NCBI GenBank assembly: GCA_002427995.1
Contig: DIZV01000096.1
Span: forward strand, 1-36,316
DNA length: 36,316 nt
Direction: 5' to 3'
Source: Chloroflexi bacterium UBA6019
Lineage (GTDB): Bacteria; Chloroflexota; Dormibacteria; Dormibacterales; Dormibacteraceae
This document shows positions 17,486-20,110 of the stretch, piece after piece (position 1 is the stretch's first letter; the number at the start of each line of letters is the position of its first letter). The notes beneath the pieces were generated by a model. It saw nothing but the letters and a program-made list of their open reading frames with translations, was not told where the DNA came from and did no database searches. Position numbers and translations under genes: made by a program.

Positions 17486-18091
17486 TCAGGCGACGGGCGG
17501 GTCCGCCGTCCGCCAGCAGTACCAGGCGGCTGCCGTGCGGTAGGGCCGGTAGACCTCGCCCAGCGCCTGCAGCTCCTTCGGCTTCGGCCAATCCGCCAGG
17601 CCATGGATCACGGCGTAGCCGCGCCGGACGCCGAGGTCGTCAACGGGCCAGACGTCCTGGCGGCCGAGCTGGAAGATGAGGAACATCTCCGCCGTCCAAC
17701 GCCCGATTCCGCGCACGGCCGAGAGCCGGGCGACGATCTCGTCGTCGGGCAGCTTCTCGATCCGGTCCAGGGGGACGGTGCCGTCGGTCGATTTGAGGGC
17801 CAGGTCGCGGATCGCGAGCATCTTGGCGGTGGAGAGCCCACAGCCGCGGAGCGGCCCGTCGGCCAGAGCGAGGACGGCCGCCGGCTGCGGCTCGCCGCCG
17901 AAGAGGGCCAGGAAGCGGCCATGGATGGCGGACGCCGCCCGGGTCGCCAGCTGCTGATAGACGATCGCCCGGACGAGAGCGTTGAAGTAGTCCCCCTGCC
18001 GGCGGCCGTGGACCGCGAAGTCGGTCGCCGCCGCCACGATCGGGGCGAAGGCGGGGTCGACCGCAAGCAGGTGGGCGACCGGTCTTCTCAA
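17486..18091 (-). CDS. DNA-3-methyladenine glycosylase II family (HhH-GPD, short AlkA/Mag-like)
   Basis: Track ORF 17486..18847. Only the last 201 aa are protein-like, with the HhH motif LSAVRGIGRWTAEMFLIF and the catalytic Asp context WPVDDLGVRRG. The TTG start at 18091 overlaps the upstream TGA (TTGA). Confidence 0.85.
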   Translation of the reverse strand: MRRPVAHLLAVDPAFAPIVAAATDFAVHGRRQGDYFNALVRAIVYQQLATRAASAIHGRFLALFGGEPQPAAVLALADGPLRGCGLSTAKMLAIRDLALKSTDGTVPLDRIEKLPDDEIVARLSAVRGIGRWTAEMFLIFQLGRQDVWPVDDLGVRRGYAVIHGLADWPKPKELQALGEVYRPYRTAAAWYCWRTADPPVA

Positions 18092-18099
18092 TAGAAGAC
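18082..18099. other. perfect 7-bp hairpin spanning the DUF2419 stop / AlkA start junction
   Basis: GTCTTCT-CAAT-AGAAGAC forms an AT-rich island in GC-rich coding sequence. The overlapping TGA stop and TTG start lie in the loop and at the loop-stem edge on the minus strand. Confidence 0.5.
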
Positions 18100-18924
18100 A
18101 GTGCGCACGCGGTGGTGGGGGCGGACCGGGAAGAGGCCCTGCGAGTACCCCCACAGCATCCAGTCGACCTCGACCGCCGTCAACTCCCGGCCCTCGGCCG
18201 CGAGCCGGTCGCGCAGCTCCTCGACCGCCACCACGGTGGCGGCGCGGATCTCGACCTCCTCCGGGGATCCCGCGTCCAGCTCGACCCAGTCGTCGACCTT
18301 CCGGGCCAGGTGCTCGGTGTACTCCAGCGCGCCGAGGTGGCGCAGGGCCTGCGGCAGCTTGTAGTCGGCGAAGCAGGTGAGCTGGTCGACGTCGGAGAAG
18401 GCGATCGCACTCGAGCCCCAGAGGTCGGCGGCGGCGATCTGGGCCCGCTTCAGGAAGGGCACCTCCAGCTCGCCGTAAACACCAACATCGCGAAACGATT
18501 CCAGGTTGCGCGAGAGATAGGAGGCGAGCTCGGGAGCGCTCGGCGGGACCAGGCGGGCGAGCTCGCCGCCCGCCTCCCGCTCCGCCAGCCGCGCCAGCTC
18601 GTGGAGGGCGGCGATGCGCCGCTCCGCCATCGGGAACTCCCCGATCACCGCCGCCAGGCCGCCCTCGTCGAGTTCGAGCAGACGCGCCGGCTCCCAGAGC
18701 GGGTCGCCCCCGTCGAAGGCGTCGCGGAGCGACTCCGCCAGCTGCCAGTAGCCGCGGCCCGACCCCCAGAAGGAGAAATTGAGCGTGTCCAGGACCAGCA
18801 CGTATTCGACCAGGCGCTCGCCTCCATAGTGTCGTCGCGAATCCCACCGGGGCACCTCTCGCTCGCGCAGAGCAGCCACGGCCGCGTCGAGCGGACCGAG
18901 CCGCACCTCGAGCGCCTCGTCCAT
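18088..18924 (-). CDS. queuosine-salvage family protein (DUF2419 / Qng1-like nucleoside-monophosphate N-glycosidase)
   Basis: Track ORF 18088..19374, with the start at ATG 18924 (MDEALEVRLG...). The 278-aa product shows motifs I associate with DUF2419/Qng1: YVLVLDTLNFSFW and FADYKLPQALRHLGALEY. Confidence 0.7.
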   Translation of the reverse strand: MDEALEVRLGPLDAAVAALREREVPRWDSRRHYGGERLVEYVLVLDTLNFSFWGSGRGYWQLAESLRDAFDGGDPLWEPARLLELDEGGLAAVIGEFPMAERRIAALHELARLAEREAGGELARLVPPSAPELASYLSRNLESFRDVGVYGELEVPFLKRAQIAAADLWGSSAIAFSDVDQLTCFADYKLPQALRHLGALEYTEHLARKVDDWVELDAGSPEEVEIRAATVVAVEELRDRLAAEGRELTAVEVDWMLWGYSQGLFPVRPHHRVRTVFY

Positions 18925-18958
18925 CACCCGGCGGCAGGCCGACCGCACGCCGAGGGGG

Positions 18959-19609
18959 TCAGCCGGCAACCGCGTCCTTGGCGGGCTGCCGCCGGAGGAG
19001 GCGGAGGATCTCGTCCTCGAGCATCCCGAAGTCCGACCGTGGAAGTTGGTGGAGGTGGCCCTGGAAAGCGAGCGTCCAGTGCTCGGGCGGCCACTTCTTG
19101 ACGTACTCGAGCCGGTAGGCGATGTGCTTGGCAAGCACCCAGTCCGGTTCCTCCAGGCGGTGGTCGAGGCGGATGTGGACGCGCCACGGGTAGTCCTCGT
19201 CGCGCCGGTCGGTGCGCCAGATCGGGGTGTGATCCTCATACATCGGCGAGGTGACCGTGGCAGTGGCGGAGAACGCCATCCGGCCGGTGACGTAATAGAG
19301 GATCCGGTCGCCCGGGTGCATGCTCGCCACTCGGTTCCTGTGCCGGCCCTTGATGCCCTGGATGCTGAAGCCATGCTCGCGGGTCCGCGTGAAGTTGTCG
19401 GGCGAGGTGACGATCATCCAGTACTGGGATGCTCGGCCGCCGCCGCCGGAACCGGAGGAACCCCCGCCGCCCTTGCCCTTGCCGCCCCGGCGCCGCTTTC
19501 GCTGCGTTCCGCTGGCGGGGGAGGGGGACGCCTCGGGGACGGAACTCTCGGCCGGCGGCGCCTCGGCGACCTCCTCGGTCTCGCTCACCGGTCCCGGGAG
19601 GACTGCCAT
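18959..19609 (-). CDS. EVE (PUA-like, UPF0310-type) domain protein with a disordered acidic-then-basic N-terminal tail
   Basis: The core YWMIVTSPDNFTRTREHGFSIQGIKGRHRNRVASMHPGDRILYYVTG...DYPWRVHI resembles the EVE/UPF0310 family. The start is ATG 19609, or GTG 19588 which overlaps the DinB stop (GTGA). Confidence 0.7.
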   Translation of the reverse strand: MAVLPGPVSETEEVAEAPPAESSVPEASPSPASGTQRKRRRGGKGKGGGGSSGSGGGGRASQYWMIVTSPDNFTRTREHGFSIQGIKGRHRNRVASMHPGDRILYYVTGRMAFSATATVTSPMYEDHTPIWRTDRRDEDYPWRVHIRLDHRLEEPDWVLAKHIAYRLEYVKKWPPEHWTLAFQGHLHQLPRSDFGMLEDEILRLLRRQPAKDAVAG

Positions 19610-20097
19610 TCGGCCAGCAGCTCGGTGGCGTGCGGAACGTGCTCCTGGTAGTGGTCGCGGAGCCAGCCGACAACGTCGTCGGGGCTGGTCGGGTAGGCCT
19701 CGGCGGCGGCGCCGTAGACGACCGGGGTCTTTCGCTCCCAGCTGTCCCGTGCGGCCGCCAGCGCGGCGTGCCTCACCTCGTCGTGGAGCGTCTCGAGTTC
19801 GGCCAGCTCGGGACTGCGCTCGCCGGCGGTGAGTCCCGCCAGGGCCCGCCGGTTGGCCTCCTCCTGCTCGCCCTCGGGGTCGGTCAGGTGGAGCTCGGCG
19901 CCGCCTCCCGAGGCGAGTGCGCCAAGCACCCGACGGTAGTGGCGAAGCACCCAGTTGCAGTGCACGACGAGACCTCCGATGGCGTAGATGTCCCCCTCCC
20001 GGAGGTAGGTGAGGGACTCGTCGGGCGCCGGCCGGAGGGCGTCGAGGAAGCCGTCGCGCGCGCGGTCAAACTCGGCCAGCGCGGTCCCTCTTTCCAT
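19585..20097 (-). CDS. DinB-family (four-helix-bundle, His-triad) protein
   Basis: Track ORF 19585..20238, with the start at ATG 20097 (MERGTALAEFDRARDGFLDAL...). The 170-aa product has spaced His residues (VVHCNWVLRHY ... HDEV ... DHYQEHVPH) as in DinB/YfiT-like proteins. Confidence 0.55.
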   Translation of the reverse strand: MERGTALAEFDRARDGFLDALRPAPDESLTYLREGDIYAIGGLVVHCNWVLRHYRRVLGALASGGGAELHLTDPEGEQEEANRRALAGLTAGERSPELAELETLHDEVRHAALAAARDSWERKTPVVYGAAAEAYPTSPDDVVGWLRDHYQEHVPHATELLAEWQSSRDR

Positions 20098-20103
20098 CGC
20101 CCA

Positions 20104-20110
20104 TACGATA
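20104..20110. promoter_or_regulatory. face-to-face overlapping -10 elements in a 21-bp divergent intergenic region
   Basis: On the minus strand, TATCGT (20110-20105) lies 7 nt from the DinB ATG at 20097. On the plus strand, TACGAT (20104-20109) lies 9 nt from the MFS TTG at 20119. Confidence 0.4.

Follow-up and report, generated by a model that had tools for sequence, protein, structure and literature searches.

The stretch of DNA analysed here, referred to as the window, comprises 36,316 nucleotides of contig DIZV01000096.1 from the assembly of Chloroflexi bacterium UBA6019. It derives from a Candidatus Dormibacterota genome; its homologues are filed under Candidatus Dormibacteraeota, Dormibacteraceae or the older label "Chloroflexi bacterium". 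Four closely packed genes occupy its minus strand from 20097 down to 17486, and the original prediction, made from the letters alone, had read them as a joint module for the recognition and the excision or salvage of modified bases. In the order of reading, they encode a DinB_2 protein (20097..19585, 170 amino acids (aa); PF12867, 29 bits against a cut-off of 24.8), an EVE protein (19588..18959 or 19609..18959, giving 209 or 216 aa; PF01878, E = 1.7e-11, 44.7 bits against 23), a Q_salvage/DUF2419 protein predicted to be the queuosine-5'-monophosphate N-glycosidase Qng1 (18969..18088; PF10343, E = 3.4e-59) and an HhH-GPD glycosylase of the AlkA/Mag1 type (18091..17486, 201 aa; PF00730, E = 6.8e-12, 46 bits against 26.2). 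All four domain assignments had been proposed before and exceed the curated Pfam thresholds. The divergent tgt gene that had been noted about 10 kb away lies on the plus strand at 30186..31370. On balance, we favour the view that this is a mosaic, probably leaderless four-gene unit in which only Qng1, together with the distal tgt, belongs clearly to modified-base metabolism, while EVE would be independent and the AlkA and DinB genes would be additions.

The DUF2419 gene is predicted to encode a bona fide Qng1. Its product matches PF10343 with 201 bits against a cut-off of 25, over profile positions 8-285 of 285, and matches the solved Qng1 of S. thermophilus (StQng1; 7U07/7UK3) with an E value of 5e-51. 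When a HMMER alignment to 7U07 was read against the residue roles described for that enzyme (PMC9881137), all 19 of the 19 mapped catalytic and substrate-contact residues of StQng1 were found to be kept, plus the C-terminal Y323. The identical residues include, on the catalytic side, the nucleophilic Asp D231, the helix-hairpin-helix Lys K199 and the proton-relay residues, plus D69, N72 and D207; in the pocket for the 7-deazaguanine and its 7-substituent, P46, W48, H53, Y93, W94, I203, D298, W299 and W302; and, at the phosphate, the four contacts R80, Y232, K233 and Q306. The equivalent of F75 is kept as well. Within the window protein, the segments FADYKLPQ, KRAQIAAAD and LDTLNF align with the catalytic residues of StQng1. 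The carboxylate of the C-terminal Tyr is known to reach into the Qng1 active site, so that the protein must end in this residue (PMC9881137); the window protein ends in ...RVRTVFY followed by the stop codon, and StQng1 likewise in ...RTRTIFY.

The 34-nt gap previously placed between the EVE gene and qng1 is only nominal, as it depends on a start at ATG 18924. A conserved N-terminal motif, DPLGVR, is encoded upstream of this position in all Dormibacterota orthologues and also in Anaerolineae Qng1. Each of its codons varies synonymously among the orthologues, which argues that it is translated. ATG 18924 is not a conserved start, and given the upstream motif the real start of Qng1 is most likely TTG 18969. 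Initiation there gives a protein of 293 aa, the commonest length among close Qng1 homologues, and an overlap of 11 nt with the EVE stop.

The distal tgt gene has a GTG start and encodes a bacterial tRNA-guanine transglycosylase (TGT) that matches the Z. mobilis enzyme with an E value of 4.5e-95. It keeps the TDSGGFQ, LDEC and GVGEPDD motifs, the catalytic Asp residues, the CxCxxC..H zinc site and the C-terminal part, and is a tRNA-type TGT rather than DpdA. Its substrate-pocket loop, FAGMAIGDCLGE, is shortened and lacks Val: where preQ1-type enzymes have GGLAVGE, the window sequence FAGMAIGDCLGETK has GDCLGE, one residue shorter. Queuine-type TGTs have been reported to carry GG[LS][AS]G in place of the GGLAVG of the preQ1 type, whose Val acts as a steric block (PMC11570991). 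A Val-less loop was found in every Qng1-linked TGT with the loop region aligned (48 rows including the window). These loops have the same length as the published motif with differing residues, namely IGGSLG[KR], IGGDLGQ in Saccharibacteria and IGDCLGE in Dormibacterota (from loci L037-L069 and Dormibacterota; loci compared with the window are denoted here by L and a number).

The association of the two genes extends well beyond this phylum. A scan of species-representative genomes with the Qng1 alignment yielded 68 loci. Outside Dormibacterota, 19 of 34 testable species have tgt as the immediate same-strand neighbour of qng1; such pairs span Anaerolineae, Ktedonobacterales, Patescibacteria, Desulfobacterota, Bipolaricaulia, Binatia and others. 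Since Qng1 lies directly beside a Val-less tgt in many phyla, the two genes point to queuine salvage, and Qng1 plus TGT would represent a known pathway in a new phylum. In Dormibacterota the arrangement is less direct: tgt is divergent and next to EVE, on its upstream side, in 10 of 29 testable species, and lies elsewhere in the locus in 9 more. No genes for de novo queuosine synthesis (queC/D/E/F, queA, queG/H) occur within the 36-kb window. Of the recovery of queuine that had been proposed for the four-gene unit, the part that stands concerns Qng1 with the distal tgt, as supported by the residues, the Val-less loop and the cross-phylum adjacency; AlkA and DinB are recent add-ons.

Upstream of tgt lies a transporter gene of the major facilitator superfamily (MFS; MFS_1/MFS_1_like by Pfam, 28996..30192, plus strand), whose TGA stop at 30190-30192 overlaps the start of tgt, the GTG at 30186 lying within the last codons of the MFS gene. 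The same pair recurs in four related loci (L001, L013, L014 and L153). This tgt-coupled MFS protein is likely to be an importer of queuine or queuosine. Of the 106 neighbours of Qng1-tgt in the non-Dormibacterota loci L037-L070, the most frequent are HD-domain proteins, which occur five times, followed by Mur ligases (four), RRM_1 proteins (three) and CCA-adding enzymes (two); queuosine nucleotides are conceivable substrates of the HD phosphohydrolases.

The EVE protein consists of a disordered, acidic and Pro-rich N-terminus, a basic patch (RKRRRGGKGKG), a Gly run and then the EVE domain, and the tail with its basic patch is conserved in 19 of 20 aligned homologues. It evolves slowly, with at least 71% identity across the best 120 matches. 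The nearest solved relatives of the family profile are the archaeal UPF0310 proteins PH1033 (1WMM, E = 4e-9) and MJECL36 (2P5D, E = 1.3e-8). An AlphaFold2 model based on a 20-sequence alignment reached a mean pLDDT of 60, with 65-85 in the core and below 50 in the 123-142 loop and both tails, which is too low for fold comparison or an analysis of the pocket; the homologues are too alike for their alignment to be of much help to the model.

In each of the 32 Qng1-bearing Dormibacterota species representatives for which upstream sequence was available, EVE lies 5' of Qng1, directly next to it in 29 and at a distance of 2 kb in the other three. The adjacency of this pair is thus real and phylum-wide in Dormibacterota. 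At 29 of 40 loci two bases of the EVE stop codon TGA also belong to the Asp codon of DPLGVR, and the remainder have TGATG or TTGA overlaps or are spaced by at most 17 nt, an arrangement from which the two genes now appear to be translationally coupled. Junctions noted in this connection, and for the missing start codons described below, are those of the window itself (18959-18969), L003, L017, L019, L020, L023, L025, L027-L030, L034, L063 and L111. The 2-kb insert between EVE and Qng1 is seen in L031, L033 and L035 (~5.4-8.0 kb), where Qng1 has a GTG two codons before DPLGVR. About 12 loci lack any ATG, GTG or TTG codon in the stretch that runs from the in-frame stop upstream to DPLGVR (CTG only, or nothing). 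The shared TGA/Asp bases and these roughly 12 loci had raised the idea of a +1 frameshift fusing EVE to Qng1. This idea is disfavoured, since the junction has no slippery P-site codon, coupling of the usual TGATG or TTGA type is seen at other loci, and the 240 homologues listed include no fused EVE-Qng1 protein.

EVE is also found without its present neighbours. A metagenome scan with the EVE alignment returned 80 loci, 72 of them with downstream sequence, and 64 of these 72 contigs carry neither Qng1 nor tgt within 5 kb, a count made at the level of the contig locus. Neighbour-joining places the EVE sequences of the Qng1-less loci together in a single contiguous group, within which identity averages 90%; the average is 70% for the Qng1-bearing lineages and again 70% when the two groups are compared. 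Of the 159 columns of the EVE alignment, 67 exceed 90% identity in each group, and no more than 3 discriminate between them. A reading of the 64 contigs as meaning that EVE occurs mostly without Qng1 was dropped, as the contigs represent one compact clade and the count is inflated by sampling.

The 64 Qng1-less contigs share a block of genes in the order GDPD / AAA-ATPase, DinB_2, EVE and a 157-aa membrane protein, followed further on by an ABC transporter and then by glutamate dehydrogenase (GDH), and an identical block surrounds tgt-EVE-qng1 in the Qng1-bearing genomes. Among related loci, an AAA_5-type ATPase gene lies just 5' of EVE in 53 and a DinB_2 gene in 81, and the conserved block of GDPD / AAA_5-type ATPase, DinB_2 and EVE was seen in L083-L149. 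In the window these ancestral neighbours of EVE are still recognizable by Pfam on the minus strand, as an AAA_5-type ATPase of 465 aa (33946-35343) and a second DinB_2 gene (33264-33749) within a block region of 33264-36121. About 13.6 kb now separate this ancestral DinB_2 from EVE, and between the two lie tgt, two MFS genes, an ABC-2 exporter, a betaine-type ABC importer, an aldehyde dehydrogenase, a flavoprotein, DUF1684 and DUF427. As the conserved EVE core is unchanged in the clade in which Qng1 and tgt are absent from the locus, EVE appears to be an older, slow-evolving resident gene with a function of its own, independent of Qng1, and it is most simply regarded as probably an RNA-binding reader with a basic tail and its own role. 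In L089 (5588-6061) and about 44 other Qng1-less loci, the EVE stop overlaps the start of the 157-aa predicted membrane protein, which has no Pfam match; a homologue of this protein also lies 3' of Qng1 in L034.

The two outer genes of the unit have a different history. The nearest solved relatives of the AlkA-like protein are the alkylpurine glycosylases Mag1 of S. pombe (3S6I, E = 2e-36), 2H56 of B. halodurans and AlkA2 of D. radiodurans (2YG8); its WPVDDLGV segment aligns with MPADDLSI of Mag1, so that WPVDD corresponds to the ADD that contains the catalytic Asp. By homology it ranks as an ordinary alkylpurine DNA glycosylase. Its family is very large and widely distributed: of 8000 scored candidates, 7993 reach 1e-10 or better. 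Homologues at 64-69% identity stand in unrelated neighbourhoods; the context of a 74% homologue is TGT-MFS / EVE-Qng1-x-AlkA / GDH. AlkA follows Qng1 on its 3' side in 8 of 29 species, all within the sub-clade that has about 60% Qng1 identity or more. The DinB gene of the unit precedes EVE in 6 of 31 species, only where Qng1 identity is at least ~74%. Its DinB_2 match spans profile positions 1-125 of 128, with histidines at positions plausible for a metal-binding triad, and the protein is best described as an uncharacterised putative metalloprotein and a lineage-specific addition. The two DinB_2 genes of the window had been considered as possible duplicates, but BLASTP found no similarity between the DinB of the unit and that at 33264-33749. 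EVE, HhH-GPD or DinB_2 genes did not recur among the 106 neighbours of Qng1-tgt outside Dormibacterota. From this distribution AlkA and DinB appear to be recent additions, made in sub-lineages, and the notion of the four genes as a conserved functional unit does not hold: DinB and AlkA are confined to a narrow clade, relatives of AlkA occur elsewhere and the unit has no counterpart among the Qng1-tgt neighbours examined outside Dormibacterota.

The description of how the genes are packed fares better. The DinB stop overlaps a GTG at 19588 (GTGA), the Qng1 stop overlaps the TTG start of AlkA (TTGA), and the convergent gene that follows, encoding GDH, ends at 17471, 14 nt past the last gene of the unit. 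The reported -10 element TATCGT lies at 20110-20105 on the minus strand, exactly 7 nt 5' of the DinB ATG at 20097, and overlaps a second hexamer, TACGAT, on the plus strand at 20104-20109, the two together occupying 20104..20110. TANNNT occurs 46 times in the 72,632 positions of the window (6.3e-4 per position), so that the chance of meeting it 6-9 nt before a given start is ~0.25%. In 8 orthologous loci TATCGTATGG is invariant while its flanking bases vary, at a distance of 6-10 nt from the ATG, and the DinB ATG at 20097 is conserved in the same number. The gap between DinB and the divergent MFS gene that starts at TTG 20119 measures 21 nt (20098-20118) and contains a TANNNT on each strand, which makes two back-to-back leaderless transcripts a reasonable inference. 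A simple sigma-70 scan of 17200-20500 gave no -35/-10 consensus promoter and no internal terminator, with the -10-like element alone present. The four genes are probably co-transcribed from this leaderless start.

In the mosaic account favoured here, Qng1 would hydrolyse queuosine-5'-monophosphate, derived from tRNA turnover or from imported queuosine, to free queuine, which the Val-less TGT would insert into G34 of tRNA-Asp, -Asn, -His and -Tyr, while the tgt-coupled MFS protein would likely import the base or the nucleoside. During evolution qng1 would have come to lie directly 3' of EVE, and tgt 5' of it, inside the older block (GDPD / AAA-ATPase, DinB_2, EVE ... GDH). Several observations weigh against so loose a relationship between EVE and its neighbours. 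The EVE-only contigs form a single compact clade with 90% mean identity and hence count as one evolutionary event, not many. At 37 of 40 loci the EVE stop overlaps the start of Qng1, and 29 of these have exactly the same register. This tightness persists down to ~50% Qng1 identity, goes beyond what synteny alone tends to preserve and could reflect a functional EVE-Qng1 partnership. Both queuosine genes flank EVE in Dormibacterota, whereas outside this phylum they stand side by side. On the side of TGT, the Dormibacterota loop GDCLG mismatches the published GG[LS][AS]G residue for residue.

These points bear on a possible, though doubtful, alternative in which EVE works with Qng1 and TGT in a three-component queuine salvage and AlkA and DinB are passengers. 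EVE could then bind queuosine-bearing RNA fragments, queuosine nucleotides or queuosine-modified tRNA through its pocket and basic tail, and so feed or regulate Qng1 and TGT. Beside the immediate 5' position of EVE in 29 of the 32 Dormibacterota species, with its fixed overlap register, and the divergent tgt directly upstream of EVE in 10 of 29, this alternative draws on the slow evolution of EVE, shared with EVE proteins that stand beside the tRNA-modification genes TsaD and MiaB (PMC7641849), and on the conserved basic patch, which is typical of nucleic-acid binding. However, the EVE-Qng1 association is confined to one phylum, no EVE being found among the 106 neighbours of Qng1-tgt in other phyla, nor by phmmer; one Dormibacterota clade keeps the EVE core without Qng1 or tgt at the locus and couples it to an unrelated membrane-protein gene; the 2-kb insert parts EVE from Qng1 in three species; and the characterised Qng1 enzymes work without an EVE-like partner (PMC9881137). 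A stronger form, which we regard as rather unlikely, would make the Dormibacterota EVE a reader of queuosine or of a queuosine-dependent tRNA mark, physically coupled to Qng1 via obligatory translational coupling and capturing queuosine-bearing RNA or nucleotides for recycling; in lineages without a canonical qng1 start, an EVE-Qng1 fusion at the TGA/GAC junction is conceivable.

It is a good deal less probable that all four proteins form one module, in which an EVE reader, Qng1, AlkA and a DinB metalloenzyme jointly recover queuine or 7-deazaguanines from nucleic-acid turnover. The tight packing of the four genes, whose stops and starts overlap and which follow a single conserved -10-like element, and the preservation of the arrangement in 8 related loci would agree with such a module. 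Yet the four-gene unit occurs in a narrow clade only, with DinB present at a Qng1 identity of at least 74% and AlkA at one of at least 60%; AlkA belongs to a very large generic family with close members elsewhere, and its best solved relatives are alkylpurine DNA glycosylases; and the deeper Dormibacterota lineages and all other phyla have Qng1 and tgt without AlkA or this DinB. Most improbable of all is a defence or repair system that excises dPreQ0/dADG from phage DNA, a reading that the original prediction had also entertained and that is disfavoured here. It could appeal to the two glycosidase folds in the unit and to the role of EVE as a modified-base sensor in modification-dependent restriction enzymes (PMC7897488, PMC6765204). 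Against it, PADLOC returned no match for any of 7 proteins, and by Pfam neither the window nor the neighbours contain a nuclease, ATPase, McrB-type GTPase, toxin or methylase partner. PADLOC likewise gave no match to the Dpd system (a DpdA-type transglycosylase, DpdB/C, helicase/nuclease), and the tgt is of the tRNA type; the Qng1 cleft is blocked for DNA in published structures (PMC9881137); and the locus, in its housekeeping surroundings, is a stable syntenic chromosomal block across the phylum with no anomaly of composition. We therefore return to the mosaic account, with Qng1 and the distal tgt as its queuosine-related part.

This part resembles the direct queuine salvage described for S. 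thermophilus and eukaryotes, in which Qng1 acts with a queuine-type TGT (PMC9881137): the Pfam family is the same, the residues are kept and the linked tgt has a Val-less loop. It differs in that the Dormibacterota qng1 is coupled to an upstream EVE gene instead of standing next to tgt, which in the window has drifted 10 kb away, and in the loop GDCLG. Slow-evolving stand-alone EVE proteins have been described in alpha-proteobacterial operons, in the arrangement TsaD-GpsA-YciI-EVE and with MiaB (Bell, Wolf, Koonin 2020, PMC7641849). The window likewise contains a small, conserved EVE-only protein in a housekeeping context beside genes for tRNA anticodon-loop modification, but differs in phylum, in its partners (tgt and qng1), in its archaeal UPF0310-like sequence and in its added disordered basic N-terminal tail. 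With the restriction systems EVE-HNH VcaM4I and EVE-McrB it has only the EVE fold in common, having neither a nuclease or GTPase partner nor a match to a defence model. The AlkA protein shares with Mag1 and other short AlkA-type enzymes (3S6I, 2YG8) the HhH-GPD domain, a length of ~200 aa, the lack of an N-terminal AlkA domain and the aligned Asp motif, and is distinguished from Mag1 and AlkA2 only by its position after qng1 in one Dormibacterota sub-clade. The EVE-Qng1 pairing is absent both from the EVE survey (PMC7641849), which does not mention queuosine, queuine, glycosylase or DinB, and from the Qng1/TGT neighbourhood study (PMC11130926), which with its supplements does not mention PF01878, PF00730 or PF12867. 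None of the queuosine papers listed in a literature search also mentions Dormibacter.

Outside these genes the window has a metabolic and housekeeping character, with Pfam matches to a thiamine pyrophosphate enzyme, asparaginase, ThyX, aldehyde dehydrogenase, ABC and MFS transporters, UPF0182, PCMT and GDPD; the window has 70% G+C and no anomaly of composition. No tRNA genes were found in it, and a search of the window and 5 loci at the Rfam gathering thresholds gave no riboswitch or other RNA element. The open reading frame for ThyX (Thy1) at 11799-13697 is listed with 632 aa, of which only residues 411-597 form the domain, indicating an over-extended start or an unrecognised N-terminal part. 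Genes for DUF427 (NTP_transf_9) and DUF1684 at 21700-22778 accompany the locus in the sub-clade of the window, and in L013 and L014 DUF1684 lies directly 5' of EVE on the same strand.

The EVE-Qng1 coupling provides a testable lead to a reader of 7-deazaguanine bases, and on present evidence it is a lead only; if EVE were indeed a reader of queuosine, reader domains that bind this base would have their first example, and the salvage pathway would gain an accessory component. The bacterial importers that serve this route are incompletely known, and the MFS protein encoded upstream of tgt is nominated as an importer of queuine or queuosine. All Qng1-linked bacterial TGTs examined share the Val-less pocket loop, with variants that extend beyond the published motif. 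For the organisms themselves, the predicted route of Qng1 and a queuine-type TGT is hereby placed in Dormibacterota, an abundant and uncultured soil phylum, and would imply that these bacteria rely on queuine from neighbouring organisms.

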